A stretch of DNA of 64,000 bases from assembly GCA_965262915.1 (NCBI GenBank), contig OZ253564.1, positions 4,672,001 to 4,736,000 of the forward strand, in the 5' to 3' direction. Under the pieces are notes generated by a model. The model saw only the letters and a program-made list of their open reading frames with translations, searched no databases and was not told where the DNA came from. This DNA is from Candidatus Spongiisociaceae bacterium (GTDB lineage: Bacteria > Actinomycetota > Acidimicrobiia > Spongiisociales > Spongiisociaceae). Every line of letters starts with the position of its first letter. Within the stretch, counting starts at the first letter, position 1. This document shows positions 21,396 to 28,802 of this stretch, piece by piece. Position numbers and translations under genes: made by a program.

Positions 21396-22280
21396 CTATT
21401 GCTTCTGGATGTCCTCGAACCCCAATTCCATCGGGGTGTCCCTGCCGAAGATCTCGACGAGCACGGTGACCTTCTGCTGGTCCACGTTGATGTCCTCGAC
21501 CACTCCGTTGAAATCGGCGAAGGGGCCGGCGGAGACGCGTATCGTCTCCCCGATCTCCCAGGCCGGCCGGAAACGAGGGGGCTTCTTCGCCGCTTCCTTC
21601 TTGAGACCCAGGAACCGCTCGACCTCCCGCTTGGACAGCGGAGTGGGCCTGTTCCCGCTTCCCATGCCCACGAAGGAGGTCACGCCCGGAGTGTTGCGCA
21701 CCGCATGCCAGGAGTCGTCGTCCATGTACATCCTGATCAGGAGGTAGCCCGGGAACATCCGCTTCTCGACCTCGACCTTGCGCCCACCCTTGAACTCCAC
21801 CACTTTCTCGGTGGGGATCACGACCTCGAAGATGCGGTCCTGCATGTGCATGGACGAACTGCGTGTAGCGAGGTTGGCCTTGACCTTCTTCTCGTGACCC
21901 GAGTAGGCGTGGATCACGTACCACGAACCCCGTTTGTCGTAGGGGCTGATCGGCTCCTCCTCCACCTCGGTCGCCAACGCGGTGCGGGGCTCGGCTGCGG
22001 CCTTGGTGCCGGGAGTGGCGGTGGCGCGGCGCCGAGCCGCGGCGGGCTTGCGGGCCTTCTTCGCAGCGGCCGCAGGAACCTCGGGCGGAGGCGCCGGCCG
22101 AGGTTCGGGCTCGGGCTCGGGCTCGGGCTCGGGCGTCGCCTCCGGTGGGGTTCCGTCGGTACCGAACCCGGCCGACAGGAGGGCAGTTCCCAGCAAACTG
22201 AGCGATTCCTCCGACGCATCGCTGTCAGCCCCGGCCTCGGGGTCATCATCGATTACAGGCAGAGTCCGGTCGGTCATCAT
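21396..22280 (-). CDS. nusG: Transcription termination/antitermination factor NusG with long low-complexity N-terminal extension
   Basis: [45 protein letters not shown]; start overlaps secE stop. Confidence 0.93.
22105..22134. repeat. (TCGGGC)5 coding microsatellite giving a Pro-Glu run in NusG
   Basis: Five exact 6-bp units. Confidence 0.9.
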
Positions 22281-22579
22281 CACCCCATCAATGCCTTGAT
22301 GAAGGCCAGTATCGAACGGCTGAAGGCCAGATCGACGAGGAATACATAAGCCGTGAGCGCCCCGGCGGTGACAACGGTCACGGTGGTGAAGGCGATCATC
22401 TGCTGGCGGCTGGGCCACCCGACCCGGCTGAGTTCGACCCGCACCTCGCGCAGGAACTGGACGAGGCGCGCCCAGCGGCTCCGCTGCGGTCCGCCGATGG
22501 GCGAGCGGCGTCCCCGTTTGTCCTTCTGTTTGCTGCGCCGCTCCTCCCTCTCGGCAAGCCGGCGCATCTCGCGGTTCAT
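22280..22579 (-). CDS. secE: Preprotein translocase subunit SecE
   Basis: FLREVRVELSRVGWPSR followed by one TM helix; between tRNA-Trp and nusG. Confidence 0.93.
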   Translation of the reverse strand: MNREMRRLAEREERRSKQKDKRGRRSPIGGPQRSRWARLVQFLREVRVELSRVGWPSRQQMIAFTTVTVVTAGALTAYVFLVDLAFSRSILAFIKALMG

Positions 22580-22635
22580 ATCTCTTCCTGTCCTCTTACG
22601 TGGGTTTCACCGGCGGGTATCGCCGTGAACGAGCC

Positions 22636-22714
22636 TGGCAGGGGCGGAGGGACTCGAACCCCCAACCTCCGGTTTTGGAGACCGGCGCTCTAACCAATTT
22701 CGAGCTACGCCCCT
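22636..22714 (-). tRNA. tRNA-Trp (CCA)
   Basis: AGGGGCG acceptor stem, anticodon loop CT-CCA-AA, GGTTCGAGTCC T-arm, encoded CCA end. Confidence 0.96.
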
Positions 22715-22728
22715 CGACCGTACGGGGG

Positions 22729-22758
22729 AGTATACGAACAGGTCGCCCCCAGTGTAAA
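22729..22758 (-). promoter_or_regulatory. SigA-type promoter for tRNA-Trp-secE-nusG
   Basis: TTTACA-18nt-TATACT. Confidence 0.6.
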
Positions 22759-22799
22759 TCAGTTGCGATGGTTCAGTGACCGGTAGCCGGTAGCAACTA

Positions 22800-23204
22800 C
22801 TACTGGCTACCTGCGGCCGACTTGATCCAGCGACCTGCGATCACCACTACACCGATAGCCGCCAGCGAAGCCGCCGACGCCACTGCCGCCCGCACGGAGC
22901 GGCGCCGCGTATCGTGGGCCATGGTAGGACTCTCCGGCAGGATCGTCATGGGCTGGTCCAGAACCACCGTCATGTCGTATGGGAGCGGCTCGAAGTGGCG
23001 ACGCATGGAGGCCAGTCCCTTGATGACCTGCCGCTGGCGAACGGTAGCCGCCTGGCAGACGAGACACCCCCGCCGGTGACGAGCGAGCATCGGCGGTATA
23101 CCGATCACCCCGGACTCGACGCCGTAGAGCACCAGCCGGGTCACCCCGCAGGCGGCCTCCCTGGGTACGCGGTCGATACCGGCGTGGGGCAGGAAGCGAG
23201 TCAC
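22800..23204 (-). CDS. Putative zinc-binding anti-sigma factor
   Basis: HRRGCLVC = HxxxCxxC (ZAS) motif, C-terminal hydrophobic helix, overlaps the ECF sigma stop (GTGA). Confidence 0.7.
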   Translation of the reverse strand: MTRFLPHAGIDRVPREAACGVTRLVLYGVESGVIGIPPMLARHRRGCLVCQAATVRQRQVIKGLASMRRHFEPLPYDMTVVLDQPMTILPESPTMAHDTRRRSVRAAVASAASLAAIGVVVIAGRWIKSAAGSQ

Positions 23205-23764
23205 ACCACCCCCCGCAACAACTCTCGCAACCGGAGATGGGCGCGATGCAGGCGCACCTTGGAAGCGGTCACAGAGATCGACATCGACTGGGCGATCTCC
23301 TTGTGTGACCAGCCGTAGACATCCTTGAGTATCACGATGGAACGCTGATGATCGGGTAGACGACCGAGGGCACCCTTCAGGTTGGCTCGGAGCTCCGCCC
23401 TCTCGCCTGCGATTTCGGGGTCCCCGCTGCTGTCGGCATGGGGCTGGCGAATCATGTCATCGAGGTTGTAGGTGGCCTGGCGGGCGGCCCGACCCTTGAG
23501 CGTCCAAGCGACGTTGACGGTGACCCGATACAACCAGGTGCTGAAGCTCGAGTCACCCCGGAACCGGCTGATCGCCTTCCAGGCGCGCACCAGCGCTTCC
23601 TGAGTAACGTCTGCAGCAAGAGTTCGGTCCCCGACCAAACGAACCGCCAATGTGTACACCTCGTGCTGGTGGAGTCGAACCAGTTCGCCGAAGGCGGCCC
23701 GATCACCCTGGCGTGACCGTTCCACCAATTCGTTGATATCCGCTTCGACCCGTTCACCCGACAT
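23201..23764 (-). CDS. ECF RNA polymerase sigma factor
   Basis: GDRAAFGELV, DVTQEA, FRGDSSFSTWLYRV, region 4 GWSHKEIA...KVRLHRA. Confidence 0.92.
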   Translation of the reverse strand: MSGERVEADINELVERSRQGDRAAFGELVRLHQHEVYTLAVRLVGDRTLAADVTQEALVRAWKAISRFRGDSSFSTWLYRVTVNVAWTLKGRAARQATYNLDDMIRQPHADSSGDPEIAGERAELRANLKGALGRLPDHQRSIVILKDVYGWSHKEIAQSMSISVTASKVRLHRAHLRLRELLRGVV

Positions 23765-23784
23765 CTGGTTACGTTACCCGCCCG

Positions 23785-24654
23785 CTAGCCGGTCCGGACC
23801 GTGATCGTAGCAACCACGTGGTTACCGGAATCGGAGACCACCGTCGTGCGGAGGGACGCCCGAGGGTCGGTACGGCTCGCCACCGTGGTGGTGACCGTGG
23901 CCGCCTCGTCAGGATAGAGGGGCCGGCGGAAGCGGAAACGGGCGTCCGCCAGGGGATCGCTGCGAACCACGGAGGCCGCCGCCGGCTGCGTGGCCCAAGC
24001 GGCCATCAGCAGTCCGTGGCATATGACTCCACCGACACCGGACTCGACCGCCCGTCCGTGGTCCCAGTGGACGGGGTTGAAGTCCTCACTGGCTGCCGCG
24101 TAGCGCACCAGATCGGCGCGGGAGGCCGACTTCGGGAGCGGTCGGAGCGCCGCGCCCGTAGCCGGAAGGGACTCGTGCGCCGGGCGGGCATTGGCCCGGC
24201 GAGCTTCCGGACCGGGCTCCTCACGGTCCGCGGCGCCGCCACCGGGCGGTTCCTCGTCCGACATCAGGAACAGCGACCTCGACGACAGCACCGTTCGCTC
24301 CCGATCGTCGGTCACCCTCGCGACGAACGTGACGAACGCCGTGGCACCCCGCTCTCGAAGCCGGTCGATCCTGGCTTCGATGGCGAGCAACCTCCCGATC
24401 CGCCACGGCGCTTTCCACGAGAAGACCTGTTCGCCGTGGATAAGCAGCCGGGCGTGGGACGAGACGTCCGGATCGGCGAAGAAGGCCGGCGCCACCTTGA
24501 ACAATACCGCTCCCGCAAAGGAGGGGGGCGCGTGGGTGTCCCACCTGTGCGGATCGTCACCCGTGGCCGCCACATAGGCGGCCACCTGCGCGGCGTCGAT
24601 CCGGAACGGGAACGGTCCGTAGGAGCGACCCGTGAGTGCCCCGGGGCCACTCAC
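23785..24654 (-). CDS. Fused double hot-dog MaoC dehydratase (HadA/HadB-like)
   Basis: N-half APPSF...LIHGEQ (MaoC_dehydrat_N type); C-half YAAASEDFNPVHWD...HGLL hydratase motif; position after rpmG as for hadABC. Confidence 0.8.
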   Translation of the reverse strand: MSGPGALTGRSYGPFPFRIDAAQVAAYVAATGDDPHRWDTHAPPSFAGAVLFKVAPAFFADPDVSSHARLLIHGEQVFSWKAPWRIGRLLAIEARIDRLRERGATAFVTFVARVTDDRERTVLSSRSLFLMSDEEPPGGGAADREEPGPEARRANARPAHESLPATGAALRPLPKSASRADLVRYAAASEDFNPVHWDHGRAVESGVGGVICHGLLMAAWATQPAAASVVRSDPLADARFRFRRPLYPDEAATVTTTVASRTDPRASLRTTVVSDSGNHVVATITVRTG

Positions 24655-24665
24655 CGCCGGTATCC

Positions 24666-24848
24666 CTAGCGGATCTCGCGATGCAGGGTGTGCCGGCGTA
24701 GGAACGGGTTGTACTTCCTGAGTTCCAACCTTCCCCGCGTGTTGTTGCGGTTCTTGGTGGTGATGTAGCGGGACGGGGGCTTGCCTTCGCCTCGTGCCTC
24801 CGTACATTCAAGCGTGATCTTGATACGGTTGCCCTTTTTTTTGGCCAT
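24666..24848 (-). CDS. rpmG: 50S ribosomal protein L33
   Basis: [10 protein letters not shown]...[27 protein letters not shown]. Confidence 0.96.
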
Positions 24849-24905
24849 GATGCCCTTCCCGTTCGCCCTGAACCTTCTAGAACCCTGGTGATTACAAGCG
24901 CCGGT

Positions 24906-26093
24906 TCACTTGGTGATTTTGGTGACGGTGCCCGCACCTACAGTACGACCACCCTCCCGAATAGCAAACCGCAAACCCTCATCCATAGCAATAGCAAACC
25001 CCAACTCCACCGACATATACGTATTATCACCCGGCATCACCATCTCCACACCCCCAGGCAACCCCACCCGACCAGTCACATCCGTAGTACGAAAATAAAA
25101 CTGCGGCTGATACCCAGGAAAAAACGGATTATGCCGACCACCCTCATCCTTAGTCAACACATACACCTGCGCATCAAAACACGTATGCGGCGTAATCGAG
25201 GACGGCGCAGCCAACACCTGCCCCCGCTCCACATCCCCCTTACGAACCCCCCGCAACAACACCCCAATATTGTCACCAGCCCGACCCTCATCCAACAACT
25301 TCCGAAACATCTCCACCCCCGTCGCCACCGTACGACGAGTCTCCCGAATCCCCACCACCTCAACCGTCTCACCAACCCGAACCACACCAGCCTCCACCTT
25401 CCCAGTCACCACCGTCCCCCGACCAGTAATCGAAAACACATCCTCAATCGGCATCAAAAACGGCCGATCCACCGGACGATCAGGAACCGGCACATACGAA
25501 TCAACCGCATCCATCAACTCCAACACACCCCCAGCCGCCACCGGATCACCCTCCAACGCCCCCAACGCCGACACCGGAACCACCGGCACGTCATCACCCG
25601 GAAACCCATAATCATCCAACAGCTCCCGAACCTCCAACTCCACCAACTCCAACAACTCCTCATCATCCACCAAATCAACCTTATTGAGCGCCACCACCAC
25701 ACACGGCACCCCCACCTGACGAGCCAACAAAACATGCTCCCGCGTCTGAGGCATCGGCCCATCAGCCGCCGACACCACCAACACCGCCCCATCCACCTGC
25801 GCCGCACCCGTAATCATATTCTTGATATAATCCGCATGACCCGGCATATCCACATGAGCATAATGACGAGCAACAGTCTCATACTCCACATGAGCAATAG
25901 CAATCGTAATACCCCGCTCACGCTCCTCAGGCGCCTTATCAATCTCATCAAACACCGTAAACACATTCCCAGACACACGCTCAGACAACACCCGAGTAAT
26001 CGCAGCAGTCAACGTCGTCTTACCATGATCAATATGACCCATAGTCCCAACATTCACATGCGGCTTAACCCGCTCAAACCTAGCCTTCGCCAT
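24906..26093 (-). CDS. tuf: Elongation factor Tu
   Basis: [47 protein letters not shown]. Confidence 0.98.
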
Positions 26094-26176
26094 GGCGTTT
26101 GTTTCTCCTCGTGATCTTTGGATGGTTCCGTGACATTCCACCGGCCGGCAATCCACGACAGACTGCCGACCGTTCG

Positions 26177-26250
26177 TAGCGGCGGGCAGACTTGAACTGC
26201 CGACCTCTCGATTATGAGTCGAGCGCTCTTACCGACTGAGCTACGCCGCC
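26177..26250 (-). tRNA. tRNA-Met (CAT, elongator type)
   Basis: GGCGGCG acceptor, CT-CAT-AA loop, GTTCAAG T-loop; CCA not encoded. Confidence 0.93.
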
Positions 26251-26294
26251 TCGCTGGAGTGGCTTCCGGCGCGTCGCCGGTACCACCCCGGTCG

Positions 26295-26368
26295 AGCCCC
26301 CTTCCGGATTCGAACCGGAGACCTCCTCCTTACCATGGAGGCGCTCTGGCCTACTGAGCTAAGGGGGC
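26295..26368 (-). tRNA. tRNA-Thr (GGT)
   Basis: GCCCCCT acceptor, CCTCC-AT-GGT-AA-GGAGG anticodon arm, GTTCGAATCC. Confidence 0.95.
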
Positions 26369-26401
26369 GCATCCCGATGAACGTTACCGCCCACGGCCGA
26401 G

Positions 26402-26484
26402 TGCCGGGAGGAGGATTCGAACCTCCGAAGGCATCTACCGGCAGATTTACAGTCTGCTCCCTTTGTCCGCTCGGGCATCCCGGC
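26402..26484 (-). tRNA. tRNA-Tyr (GTA)
   Basis: GCCGGGA acceptor, GCAGA-CT-GTA-AA-TCTGC arm, long variable arm, GGTTCGAATCC. Confidence 0.95.
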
Positions 26485-26562
26485 ACGGTTTGCTGCCACC
26501 GAGAAGCGTAGCGGGGGAATGCTAGTCGCTGCGAGCCCGAACCAAAACCCCTGGGCCGCCTC

Positions 26563-27420
26563 TCAGGTCCGGTAGTGCAGAGCCTCCAGCCGCCGGATCC
26601 TCTCCTCGATGGGGGGATGCGTCGAGAACAGGCGCCCGCCGCCACCACCCCTCCGACCGAATGCCTTGAGGGGATCCGCAATGAACAACTGGCTCACCGC
26701 CGGGTTCACCTGCATGGGGATACGCCCGCTCGCCGTGCCGATCTTGTCCAGGGCCCGGGCCAGGCTGAGCGGCTGTCCGGTCACCTCCGCCCCGGAGGCA
26801 TCGGCCTGGTACTCCCGAGCCCGGGAGATAGCCATCTTGATGATCATTCCCGCGATCGGGGCCAGGATGAATGCCGCGAGGGTGATCACCAGACCCGCAG
26901 GGTTGTTCCGGTCCCGCCCCCCTCCGAACCACAGAGCAATCCGGCTGAAGATGGTCAGCGCCGCGGCCAGCATGGCGGCTATCGACGAGATCAGTATGTC
27001 GCGGTTGCGAACATGGGACAGTTCGTGGGCCAGCACGCCCTCAAGTTCGTCGTCCCTCATGATCTGGAGGATTCCTGTGGTCACGGCCACGGCTGCGTGC
27101 TTGGGGTTGCGTCCGGTCGCGAAGGCGTTGGGCTGGGGGGACTCGATCAGGTGGATCGACGGCATCGGCATGTCCGAGGCTGCGGCCAGGCGACGGATCA
27201 TGCCGTAAACCTTGGGGAGTTCCTGCTCGGTGACAGGACGGGCCCGGCTCATCGACAGCGCCAGCTTGGCGGAGAAGAAGTAGGCGGCGAAGTTCAGTCC
27301 CGCCGCCAAGAGCAGGCCGATAACCATGCCCTGGGAGCCGCCGAACAGCACCAGGCCCAGCCACCACACGAGGGCGCTCATGAAGCTGAGCAGGGCAACC
27401 GTCTTGAGGTTGTTCATCAC
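26563..27420 (-). CDS. htpX: Zinc metalloprotease HtpX
   Basis: PNAFATGR, HELSH, ISRAREYQAD, FSTHPP; TM helices. Confidence 0.95.
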   Translation of the reverse strand: MMNNLKTVALLSFMSALVWWLGLVLFGGSQGMVIGLLLAAGLNFAAYFFSAKLALSMSRARPVTEQELPKVYGMIRRLAAASDMPMPSIHLIESPQPNAFATGRNPKHAAVAVTTGILQIMRDDELEGVLAHELSHVRNRDILISSIAAMLAAALTIFSRIALWFGGGRDRNNPAGLVITLAAFILAPIAGMIIKMAISRAREYQADASGAEVTGQPLSLARALDKIGTASGRIPMQVNPAVSQLFIADPLKAFGRRGGGGGRLFSTHPPIEERIRRLEALHYRT

Positions 27421-27466
27421 CCCCGATTCTACAGCTTCCTGACCCTTGCTTCTTCCACCTCGCGGA

Positions 27467-27550
27467 TGCGGAATAGAGATAGCGAAGGATGCGAAAAAAC
27501 GGTAACCGAAGGTGCGGAATAGAGATAGCGAAGGATGCGAAAAAACGGTA
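27467..27550 (+). repeat. Exact 38-bp direct repeat, period 46 (four ~23-bp subunits), overlapping a promoter
   Basis: TGCGGAATAGAGATAGCGAAGGATGCGAAAAAACGGTA at 27467-27504 and 27513-27550; TAGCGA-17-TATTGT-6nt-GTG(27561). Confidence 0.9.
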
Positions 27551-27560
27551 TTGTCCCCTT

Positions 27561-28802
27561 GTGATCCAGTACCATCCCCGATTCGTCGATACGATCATCG
27601 AGGAATTGCACGCCGATCTTCCTGCGTTGATGCTGGTCGGGCCCAGAGCCACAGGCAAGACCACAACCGCATCCCGGCACGCCGCCACGGTTGTTCGGCT
27701 CGACCGTCATGCCGAGTCGGCGGCCTTCCGGGCCGATCCTGATTCGGCGCTGCGCAACCTTGCAGAGCCGTTACTCCTCGATGAATGGCAGGCGGTCCCC
27801 GCCGTGCTGGGAGCAGTCAAGCGGGCAGTGGACTCCCATAGCCGACCCGGTAGGTTTCTGCTCACCGGATCCGTCCGTGCCCACCTCGAAGAAGAGACCT
27901 GGGCCGGCACAGGCCGCGTCGTGCGCCTCGCCATGTATACCCTCAACGTCGCCGAACAACTGGGACGCACGCCCCGCCGGACCCTCACGAAGCGGATCAC
28001 CACCCCCGAGGACCTCATCGCCGCCGACGACACCCCCGACTTACGCGGCTACATCGAACTCGCTCTCCGCGGAGGATTCCCCGAAGCAACCCTCGACACC
28101 GGCGACAGGGCGCGACCCTACTGGCTCGCAGGCTACGTCGAAGAAGTCGTCACCCGAGACGCTCTTACGCTCGCACCGGCTAGAGATCCCGTCCGTTTGG
28201 GCCGCTACCTGGAAGCCTACGCCCTCAACTCCGCCGGGCTCGCCCACAGCAAAACCCTCTACGACGCCGCCGGCATCAACCGCAAGACAGCCCTCGCCTA
28301 CGACCGACTCCTTCAGAACCTCTTCATCATCGACGAACTCCCCTCGTGGTCATCGAACCGGCTCAAACGGCTCGCCCGGTCCCCCAAGCGTTACCTGATC
28401 GACCCCTCACTACTGGTCGGGATCCTGGGAATCGACGCCGCCGCGGTCATGCGCGACGGGGACCTCCTGGGCCGGGTCCTCGACACGTTCGTTACCTCCC
28501 AACTCCGCGCCGAATCCATCCTCGGCTCCGGCAGGACCGGCAGAACACGCCTATATCACCTACGCCACGACCAAGGCCGCCACGAAATCGACCTGATCAT
28601 CGAGCTCCAAGGCCAATACGTCATCGGTATCGAGATCAAGGCCACCGCCGCGCCTGACACCCACGACGCCCGCCACCTCGCCTGGCTCCGCGACCAGATA
28701 GGCAACCGCTTCATAGCCGGGGTGGTCCTCCACACGGGACCCTCCACCTACTCCCTCGGCAACCGTATCACCGCCGCCCCCATCTCCGCTCTCTGGGCGT
28801 GA
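27561..28802 (+). CDS. AAA ATPase with DUF4143 / C-terminal PD-(D/E)xK-like domain
   Basis: GPRATGKTT, LLLDEWQ, FLLTGS, GGFPE, PKRYLID, EIDLII..IEIK. Confidence 0.88.
   Translation: MIQYHPRFVDTIIEELHADLPALMLVGPRATGKTTTASRHAATVVRLDRHAESAAFRADPDSALRNLAEPLLLDEWQAVPAVLGAVKRAVDSHSRPGRFLLTGSVRAHLEEETWAGTGRVVRLAMYTLNVAEQLGRTPRRTLTKRITTPEDLIAADDTPDLRGYIELALRGGFPEATLDTGDRARPYWLAGYVEEVVTRDALTLAPARDPVRLGRYLEAYALNSAGLAHSKTLYDAAGINRKTALAYDRLLQNLFIIDELPSWSSNRLKRLARSPKRYLIDPSLLVGILGIDAAAVMRDGDLLGRVLDTFVTSQLRAESILGSGRTGRTRLYHLRHDQGRHEIDLIIELQGQYVIGIEIKATAAPDTHDARHLAWLRDQIGNRFIAGVVLHTGPSTYSLGNRITAAPISALWA

Follow-up and report, generated by a model that had tools for sequence, protein, structure and literature searches.

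Near-absolute G/T third positions in the tuf genes of an acidimicrobial bacterium point to a strand-asymmetric bias linked to gene conversion between copies

The genes for elongation factor Tu (EF-Tu) are a textbook case of optimal codon usage. Where tuf is present in two copies, tufA and tufB, these are reported to evolve in concert by gene conversion in Salmonella and E. coli and in six phyla including Actinobacteria (PMC5485169, PMC6053082), and tuf conversion in Salmonella is reported to start uniformly along the gene and to stay within its limits (PMC5485169). Here we looked at a tuf gene in a stretch of 64,000 nucleotides (the window) from a Candidatus Spongiisociaceae bacterium of the class Acidimicrobiia (contig OZ253564.1, positions 4,672,001 to 4,736,000). 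The two tuf copies of this genome follow the same pattern, in that their contexts differ (an EF-G-like gene upstream of one, tRNA genes upstream of the other) and the copies are identical inside and unrelated outside. In addition, almost every codon of the gene ends in G or T. An initial annotation of the window had noticed these codon endings; the skew described here goes beyond it in being polar, ancient, common to mobile elements and protein-altering. The features on which the description rests are the following.

24906..26093, minus strand: tuf coding sequence, EF-Tu of 395 amino acids plus a TGA stop, the tufB-like copy (translation, Pfam and a 100% protein match to the other copy)
24933..26093, minus strand: domain of G/T third positions, codons 1-387 (G or T is the third base in 381 of 387 codons, Leu is nearly always TTG; also seen in the GC skew profile)
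24909..24932, minus strand: 3' tail, codons 388-395 (of these codons seven end in C or A, AAA for Lys among them, and the last is AAG)
24908..26095, no strand assigned: block of perfect DNA identity between the tuf copies, -2 to +1185 relative to the ATG

The EF-Tu of the window is full length in an open frame, with the Pfam domains PF00009 (2.3e-62), PF03144 and PF03143 spanning residues 10-393. Each of the first 89 codons has G or T at its third position, the first exception being ATC (Ile) at codon 90, and the gene closes with the run GGC ACC GTC ACC AAA ATC ACC before the last codon AAG; both points had been read from the sequence in the initial annotation and were confirmed by codon count. 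This run makes up 7 of only 13 sense codons that end in C or A (codons 90, 136, 168, 274, 298, 385 and 388-394), and the other 382 of the 395 end in G or T. On the coding strand there are 488 G, 348 T, 182 A and 170 C (41% G, 29% T, 15% A, 14% C). The plus-strand GC skew is -0.39 to -0.65 within the gene and mostly inside +/-0.2 in the flanks, and the GC content of the tuf region drops to 0.49-0.63. Leu is encoded by TTG in 25 of 27 cases, so that C is avoided at first codon positions too, and two-fold pyrimidine-ending codons carry T in 95% of cases. About 40% of the codons are T-ending, a rare class in this genome, and the GC content at third positions (GC3) is 0.59 vs 0.74-0.92 in the neighbour genes. 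An open reading frame (ORF) of 408 amino acids without a Pfam family (24888-26114, plus strand) lies antisense over the entire gene; it is open because A-ending sense codons are nearly absent from tuf.

The genome under study (G000) is a single contig of 5.06 Mb with 64.4% GC. For each gene we calculated GT3, the share of codons ending in G or T, using 3621 genes of at least 100 amino acids out of a crude, self-trained set of 3796; rpmG (60 amino acids) is too short for this measure. The mean GT3 is 0.467 with a standard deviation (SD) of 0.059 and a maximum of 0.77, which places tuf, at 0.967, about 8.5 SD above the mean. The self-trained codon model picked neither tuf copy as a gene. When GT3 was ranked among ORFs of at least 150 amino acids (from 21,802 ORFs in total), as had been proposed as a check at the outset, the two tuf copies came first and the next value was 0.83. 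Among model genes, the ten that follow tuf encode solute-binding proteins, oxidoreductases, a GntR regulator, RuvA and a transposase-related protein; they are not translation genes, and an expression-linked continuum of GT3 is thereby ruled out. The highest of the non-tuf model genes (0.77) is an ORF of 508 amino acids without a Pfam family (G000:C1:2993452-2994978, plus strand), which has a high GT3 in each third and may not be a real gene.

The translation genes themselves are ordinary. The initial annotation had described the neighbours as differing from tuf, and indeed, with tRNA genes upstream and the gene for L33 (rpmG) directly downstream, followed by those for NusG, L1, L10 and L7/L12 (Pfam), GT3 in the latter four is 0.48-0.57. 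At the second tuf locus the 706-amino-acid EF-G-like (fusA-like) gene directly upstream of tuf has a GT3 of 0.455 and a GC3 of 0.88, the gene in the S7 position before it has 0.445 and the gene after tuf has 0.47, while about 15 ribosomal-protein-sized genes have 0.47-0.54. The ribosomal-protein-sized and EF-G-like genes together show a GC3 of 0.82-0.92 with a GT3 of 0.45-0.54, so tuf is without their preferred codons. Since the same-row and ribosomal-protein-sized genes are normal, the skew of tuf is not the high-expression codon bias of this genome, as had been claimed from the sequence (other translation genes, 0.445-0.54). Nor does it span the transcription unit: the leader of the window copy has a keto (G+T) content of 0.40-0.53, and at the str locus the two genes that flank tuf, EF-G-like upstream and another downstream, have the values given above. 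With normal genes in the same row, the skew is therefore not a property of the transcription unit.

A second tuf copy, which had been thought likely, was found in a whole-genome search at G000:C1:232863-234050 on the minus strand, following the EF-G-like gene, with 100% protein identity. The copies diverge inside the stop codon (TGA vs TAA) and their flanks are unrelated, so that the block of identity equals the coding sequence, and the skew is contained in it. From the cumulative GC skew, the origin is near 0.4 Mb and the terminus near 2.85 Mb, so that both tuf copies lie on the replichore whose leading strand is minus and are co-oriented with replication. In most Acidimicrobiia that we sampled the two copies are direct repeats 17-90 kb apart; in the family of G000, where the skew is strongest, they are widely separated and for the most part on opposite strands. 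In two genomes of the same genus (G005 and G006; loci L012, L032, L013 and L033) the paralog identity runs about 40 nt beyond the stop, into a G+T-rich arm followed by an A+C-rich arm that looks like a shared hairpin.

By comparing paralogs across the class the dependence of the skew on the second copy can be seen. The class sample consists of 161 genomes, 60 further tuf sequences were retrieved, and the tally is limited to genomes with both paralog sequences or with an assembly of at most 10 contigs. In the 24 genomes whose copies are at least 98% identical in DNA (98.1-100%), GT3 is 0.55-0.98, and 23 of them are at 0.64 or above. Five genomes with copies that are 85-91% identical (G992, G954, G938, G958 and G1071) have a GT3 of 0.40-0.66, and 13 one-copy genomes (assemblies of at most 10 contigs) have 0.39-0.52. 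The skew is thus found only in lineages whose tuf paralogs stay near-identical. This comparison with single-tuf relatives, which had been suggested as a check, supports a process that would be tied to conversion between the copies, and the link of the tuf skew to gene conversion is well supported. Left out of the tally are 29 of the 44 single-match rows, which come from fragmented assemblies, and two more single-match rows are 20-contig assemblies. Eight single-match genomes have a GT3 above 0.8; all are assemblies of 30-640 contigs, with several of the matches at a contig end. As an identical second tuf would collapse in fragmented assemblies, such matches may hide a second copy.

The skew has also been held for long. 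We compared 30 loci in 22 genomes that share the genus, family or order of G000: most tuf genes have a GT3 of 0.86-0.98, six loci (five genomes) have 0.42-0.57, and G004, a genome of the same genus, has 0.71. Among 80 named loci from many phyla GT3 exceeds 0.8 in only three, all of which are Acidimicrobiia or Acidimicrobiales metagenome-assembled genomes. When the tuf genes of the same genus are compared, 42 of 205 comparable four-fold sites differ by a G<->T exchange and only 4 involve C or A; since G and T are exchanged with C and A excluded, the skewed state must have been held for a long time. Orthologues within the genus differ at 21% of four-fold sites, vs the near-identity of the paralogs within each of the 24 genomes. 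The paralog differences that exist in five genomes comprise 17 sense-codon differences, 10 of them G<->T at third positions. GC3 is 0.47-0.81 in skewed tuf genes vs mostly 0.85-0.98 in unskewed relatives of similar genome GC. To judge from these comparisons the tuf skew is old and lineage-wide and not a recent event.

The skew is not uniform along the gene. In every skewed tuf the G/T run begins at codon 2 and weakens or ends before the 3' end, the last 6-9 codons being C/A-ending, including AAA for Lys, in nearly all of them; the leader and the upstream genes are unskewed. GT3 by sixths of the gene (in %) is 98, 97, 94, 83, 74 and 53 in G1044, 97, 95, 92, 91, 89 and 65 in G966, and 83, 85, 80, 73, 68 and 47 in G061. 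In contrast, 36 tuf genes labelled Proteobacteria, a sample taken without regard to copy number, are flat, with 0.51-0.58 by sixths. In G004 (loci L011 and L031) the copies are identical throughout, yet pure G/T endings are found just in codons 1-160, and the last third of the gene has a nearly normal C-rich usage with extra A (A13 C55 G24 T6). Together with the profiles by sixths, this means that the skewed interval is not simply the identity block and that the skew is a polar function of position inside it. The initial annotation had suggested a strand-specific process acting on the shared homology block only; the core of that suggestion stands, while its spatial form does not, as the skewed interval does not always equal the block (G004) and the process also marks transposable elements. 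The paralog identity of G004 runs 16 nt past the stop, into an A+C-rich stretch.

The EF-Tu protein itself is shifted as well, as had been suspected from its translation. Val and Gly together make up 25.8% of the EF-Tu of the window. In tuf genes with a GT3 above 0.9 (n=15) they make up 24.7%, with 3.3% Lys and 4.5% Ile, vs 19.5% Val plus Gly, 5.4% Lys and 6.4% Ile in those with a GT3 below 0.55 (n=34); the share of G+T at the first and second codon positions is 0.565 vs 0.489 in the same two groups, which consist of related genomes and are not independent samples.

The same signature is found in repeats other than tuf. A scan of the genome for G+T skew gave 18 extreme regions, i.e., the two tuf copies and 16 regions at the ends of transposase-like genes. 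Repeated DNA (at least 300 nt and at least 85% identity) makes up 9.5% of the genome. In 201 repeat genes GT3 falls from 0.576 in the first third to 0.312 in the last (a difference of 0.264 +/- 0.164), vs a difference of 0.022 +/- 0.079 in 2335 unique genes, and skewed windows of 300 nt are found in 3.2% of repeat windows vs 0.14% of unique ones. In one transposase gene GT3 in bins of 40 codons runs 0.90, 0.65, 0.62, 0.60, 0.55, 0.53, 0.60, 0.47, 0.30, 0.07, 0.12, 0.10 and 0.15. A gradient of this kind is present in each insertion-sequence family that was examined, at least seven in number; the families are IS30-like, IS1380 (two groups), IS1182/IS5, ISL3, IS110, IS630, IS4-like and a TrwC relaxase-primase of 1620 amino acids. 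Over whole elements the keto content starts at 65-79% and drops near-linearly to 10-27%, in the non-coding tails as at every codon position, for example in G000:C1 at 2799555-2801306, 1340972-1342782, 1108761-1110592, 693468-695422 and 311350-312796, and the skew ends at most 50 nt from the element ends. The gradient is reverse-complement symmetric, in that G+T prevails in the 5' part of either strand and A+C in the 3' part, and it therefore reflects the element as a two-ended unit and not the direction of its gene.

In a composite of 2.9 kb, made of an ISL3 and an IS110 element, the profile is a sawtooth with its own gradient for each element, while an element with two genes shows a single continuous gradient, so the unit is the element family and not the gene. 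A control of the gradient by the homology block in composite repeats is ruled out by the same sawtooth. The minor-allele spectrum among insertion-sequence copies is balanced between forward and reverse transitions, as equilibrium under any directional force predicts. For ISL3 transposases the gradient has a mean of 0.19 in Actinomycetota (n=25; 30 rows minus two rows from G000 itself and three partial matches, L147, L151 and L165) vs 0.052 +/- 0.084 in Pseudomonadota (n=23; 7 of 30 loci were skipped, with ORFs under 330 amino acids), a rank test giving p of about 9e-6 on sequences that, being kin, are not independent. At two sites, G000:C1:4155440-4155880 and 1661505-1661900, integrated elements lie directly after tRNA genes. 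The first 300-400 nt after these tRNAs are almost pure G+T on the tRNA strand, with T4G4-like runs, and overlap the 3' end of an opposite-strand gene of 576-600 amino acids without a Pfam family; the remaining C's appear mostly in CpG.

Taking these results together, we read the G/T third positions as what a strand-asymmetric bias, acting along with gene conversion between the tuf copies, has built up over a long time, and not as the result of codon selection, transcription or gene transfer; we put the probability of this reading at roughly 60%. We infer that the skew is one kind of biased gene conversion, and for the molecular cause of the bias we offer a hypothesis further below.

Several other explanations have to be weighed against conversion bias. 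One is deamination on single-stranded recombination intermediates, in which C changes to U and A to hypoxanthine on a 3' tail or on the displaced strand of a D-loop, giving C>T and A>G. This chemistry yields both enriched bases, the symmetric gradient of the insertion sequences would be expected around breaks with outward resection, polarity and block limits fit as well as they do for biased conversion, and a preprint on M. tuberculosis reports altered transition spectra in paralogous regions (PMC13061034). Yet at four-fold sites with C in an unskewed relative, G000 has 52 G and 42 T (compared with L021) or 39 G and 32 T (compared with L027). Ancestral C at third positions is thus now G about as often as T, which speaks against the C-to-T change on single strands that the initial annotation had offered as its example and rules out a simple C-to-T conversion of a normal gene. 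T-ending sites of G000 match C-ending sites of normal relatives just moderately, and G-ending sites match C-ending sites about as often as G-ending ones. The paralog differences are chiefly G<->T transversions and not transitions, unique genes are unskewed even though they are resected and repaired from the sister, and by a rough estimate from rate constants spontaneous deamination would be far too slow in rare ectopic events without a dedicated enzyme, so that deamination appears unlikely as the source of the skew. Selection on the RNA or on transcription would act differently, favouring a C-poor, G/U-rich message that is weakly folded, Rho-resistant or resistant to cleavage at cytidines (the last idea comes from mycobacterial data), with the A+C-rich 3' end as the entry site for Rho. 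The predicted folding of skewed tuf genes is indeed weak, -38 to -45 kcal/mol per 150 nt, vs -54 to -61 in unskewed relatives and -61 kcal/mol per 150 nt for the same protein recoded with EF-G-like and ribosomal-protein-like codon usage, and the onset of the skew exactly at the ATG and its relaxation toward the 3' end fit such selection too. It does not account for related single-copy tuf genes and diverged paralogs, which are unskewed despite an equal need for expression, nor for the C-ending codons kept in the EF-G-like gene of the same row and in ribosomal-protein-sized genes. Moreover, an A+C-rich leader would pair with the G/U-rich body, poorly expressed transposase genes show the signature at three codon positions and in non-coding tails, and the EF-Tu protein is itself shifted; selection of this kind is quite improbable.

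It is also conceivable that the non-template strand of a heavily transcribed gene, fed by tRNA promoters, gains C>T and A>G. The sign would be right, with a G+T-rich coding strand, one tuf copy follows three tRNA genes, and G+T-rich stretches are found after tRNA genes at the ends of integrated elements. However, the leader and the EF-G-like gene of the same row are unskewed, as are single-copy tuf genes, and insertion-sequence genes, which are presumed to be weakly transcribed, are skewed where ribosomal-protein-sized genes are not. Transcription-associated mutation is very improbable and, being contradicted by the normal flanking genes of the same row, largely refuted. Foreign origin or artefact, i.e., recent acquisition from a donor with a G/T bias, or an error of assembly or polishing in this segment, could be suspected from the low GC3 of tuf relative to its neighbours and from the failure of the codon model to select either copy. 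This suspicion had been raised together with the first description of the gene, and it is opposed by the recurrence of the skew in tuf of dozens of independent assemblies and by EF-Tu identities that track kinship: they are 93-95% within the genus, 82-92% within the family and 72-81% within order and class, and vertical descent was judged from these levels per kinship class. Both tuf loci are conserved gene neighbourhoods, and among the 80 named loci we saw no lineage with a G/T bias across its genome that could have been the donor. For practical purposes this explanation is refuted.

For conversion bias between copies, the remaining question is what makes it strand-asymmetric. The trait that tuf pairs and insertion sequences share would be a homologous partner elsewhere in the genome, with which heteroduplex DNA containing mismatches can form. 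A candidate for acting on these mismatches is the endonuclease NucS/EndoMS. G000 encodes a NucS of 234 amino acids (G000:C1:5029377-5030081) with NucS_N and NucS_C domains, while MutS_V (PF00488) and the MutL domain (PF01119) were not found in G000 by searches that were positive in 11 of 14 control genomes. NucS is present in every examined genome with a skewed tuf, the families in which it was not found have a single-copy tuf, and G022 (locus L029), one of the genomes with unskewed tuf, is also one in which it was not found. The EndoMS of C. glutamicum is reported to cut G/T, G/G and T/T mismatches, and no others, in vitro (PMC6159521), and the NucS of M. smegmatis is reported to repair in vivo only G-G, G-T and T-T that arrive on the incoming strand (PMC11551767). 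As these in vivo results come from oligonucleotide recombineering, they would support only indirectly a conversion whose outcome varies with mismatch type and strand. A further paper states that NucS reduces homeologous and not homologous recombination (PMC5290159). As the recognised mismatches are exactly those composed of the two enriched bases, we propose NucS as the cause.

The proposed mechanism would work as follows. A single strand of one resident copy, in a gap or as a 3' tail, would pair with the other copy. Heteroduplexes with G·T, G·G or T·T would then be cut or rejected by NucS/EndoMS, and those with A·C, A·A or C·C would go unrecognised and proceed to conversion, so that G and T on the resident single strand would be protected and A and C overwritten, a process that may be called keto-biased gene conversion. 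Under such a process G<->T and A<->C changes would be neutral. It predicts G or T at all free positions, including TTG for Leu, with limits at the shared block, and it also predicts G<->T differences between paralogs and a drift of the protein toward G/T-rich codons. Because tuf runs in the direction of replication, its coding strand would in most cases supply the resident single strand (as lagging-strand template or as the 3' tail of a collapsed fork), and with initiation anywhere in tuf the effect would be greatest at the 5' end and would vanish or reverse at the 3' end. Since insertion sequences occur in either orientation, they would retain just the symmetric part of the effect, as a linear gradient. 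Which sign the bias takes would depend on the strand that NucS corrects in recombination intermediates. That the range of mismatches acted on by NucS/EndoMS makes actinobacterial gene conversion a strand-asymmetric drive rewriting every repeat (tuf pairs, insertion sequences and genes of conjugative elements) is a tentative proposal, to which we give rather less than an even chance. The link to NucS is coherent, circumstantial and unproven, and we make no claim that the skew needs NucS.

A number of observations weigh against the conversion reading or against the part given to NucS in it. If NucS corrected the invading strand of a D-loop, as it does with an incoming oligonucleotide, a simple double-strand-break geometry would predict the opposite sign of the bias. 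NucS was found in 115 of the 161 Acidimicrobiia sampled, unskewed-tuf genomes included, and its presence therefore discriminates little. In G025, the one candidate for a natural control in which NucS is missing and conversion goes on, the paralogs are 99.4% identical and tuf is weakly skewed at its 5' end, with a GT3 of 0.56; no match to NucS was obtained in this genome with the family model or with the G000 protein. The assembly is only 85% complete, however, 2 of 6 congeners have NucS, and the tuf genes of its congeners range in GT3 from 0.53 to 0.81, so that G025 does not serve as a control. Near-identical paralogs and NucS are present together in G978, G1009, G1021, G1060 and G174, yet GT3 there is just 0.64-0.70. 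The strength of the skew is thus set by something else besides NucS and near-identity, such as time, conversion rate or gene arrangement. Among repeats, a 4.8-kb duplicate of ordinary non-mobile genes with 99.9% identity (G000:C1:166308-171100 and 4916439-4921231) has no G+T gradient; it may be recent, or outside the process. The sharp limits of the skew at the ends of insertion sequences are real and are not diagnostic of homology control, because insertion sequences move and carry their history along, and we rejected them as a proof. Proteobacterial elements show a weak gradient with the same sign as in Actinomycetota, and for IS110 transposases the difference between actinobacterial elements (0.117, n=22) and those of Burkholderiales (0.069, n=12) is not significant (p=0.14); in the actinobacterial set 7 of 29 loci were skipped as incomplete or short (G047 and G175 among them), the G000 locus L216 was left out and G148 (L206) was included.

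Around the gene the window holds a row of tRNA and translation genes, of which those adjoining tuf are given here.

26094..26175, minus strand: leader or spacer between tRNA-Met and the tuf ATG, not G+T-rich and unrelated to the leader of the other copy
26176..26484, minus strand, as tuf: tRNA-Tyr, tRNA-Thr and tRNA-Met, directly upstream of tuf (ARAGORN and Rfam)
24666..24848, minus strand: rpmG, ribosomal protein L33, 60 amino acids, directly downstream of tuf (Pfam)

The whole row at 22636-26484 consists of tRNA-Tyr/Thr/Met, tuf, rpmG, a MaoC-like dehydratase gene, an ECF sigma factor gene, tRNA-Trp and nusG, which we take to resemble the mycobacterial row tRNA-rpmG-had-tRNA-Trp-secE-nusG with tuf inserted. 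An Rfam scan of positions 22000-27500 of the window gave four tRNAs and nothing else. Two genes from tuf, at 27489-28802 on the plus strand, there is a gene for a DUF4143/AAA_14 ATPase whose third-position skew is opposite, with a GT3 by thirds of 0.46, 0.20 and 0.22; it is unique in the genome by the repeat criterion used.

What the tuf skew suggests in general is that a drive linked to recombination can beat translational, and even protein-level, selection in a bacterium. If the NucS link is true, strand-specific conversion favouring keto bases would be strong enough to impose rare codons on the cell's most abundant protein and to alter its amino acids, and it would give a sequence-level readout of non-canonical mismatch repair and its strand choice in Actinobacteria and Archaea; the course of the gradient within a repeat would then preserve, like a fossil, where recombination began and which strand invaded. 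In practice, codon-based gene finders and detectors of alien genes may mis-score such genes, because a simple codon model selected neither tuf copy here. Phylogenies based on tuf and dN/dS tests in these lineages are biased, and the gradients in insertion sequences may serve as a new marker of element residence time in such hosts. In our literature search neither a strand-specific G/T bias of tuf or insertion sequences nor a link of NucS/EndoMS to strand-skewed repeat composition or biased conversion came up. The nearest report is a 2026 preprint on M. tuberculosis, which describes T>C as enriched in regions with paralogs and suggests weaker NucS repair while recombination is under way (PMC13061034).

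Of the known systems, the concerted evolution of tufA and tufB is the most similar: the copies lie at the str-operon and tRNA/secE-nusG sites, identity is confined to the coding sequence, paralogs are closer to each other than to orthologues, and conversion starts anywhere in the gene and is bounded by it. In those cases, however, the copies are described as homogenised with their composition unchanged, whereas here there is a near-absolute strand-specific G/T bias with 5'-to-3' polarity and a shifted protein. NucS/EndoMS repair of Actinobacteria and Archaea, which suppresses homeologous recombination and is the sole mismatch repair system found in G000, resembles the present case in its substrates, G·T, G·G and T·T being the mismatches of the two enriched bases. 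Gradients of strand asymmetry from single-strand exposure, as in vertebrate mitochondrial DNA and in strand-coordinated mutation clusters around breaks, share with tuf and the insertion sequences a near-absolute third-position skew, a positional gradient and a strand switch at the initiation point; unlike them, where damage hits all exposed sequence, the bias described here marks only sequences with a homologous partner in the genome. Fungal repeat-induced point mutation likewise singles out duplicated DNA and drives its composition, but it acts on both strands, by C-to-T only, and is inactivating, while tuf is intact and essential and its change is strand-specific. Finally, GC-biased gene conversion, which is known in eukaryotes and has been proposed for bacteria, is similarly a non-adaptive transmission bias in heteroduplex repair that acts where recombination is frequent and can override codon and amino-acid selection. 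It differs in that its favoured states are G:C pairs, and not G and T on one strand as here, where GC3 falls and the bias is strand-asymmetric and reverses along the repeat. In its strand-specific G/T form the bias seen in tuf would thus be a new variant of biased gene conversion.

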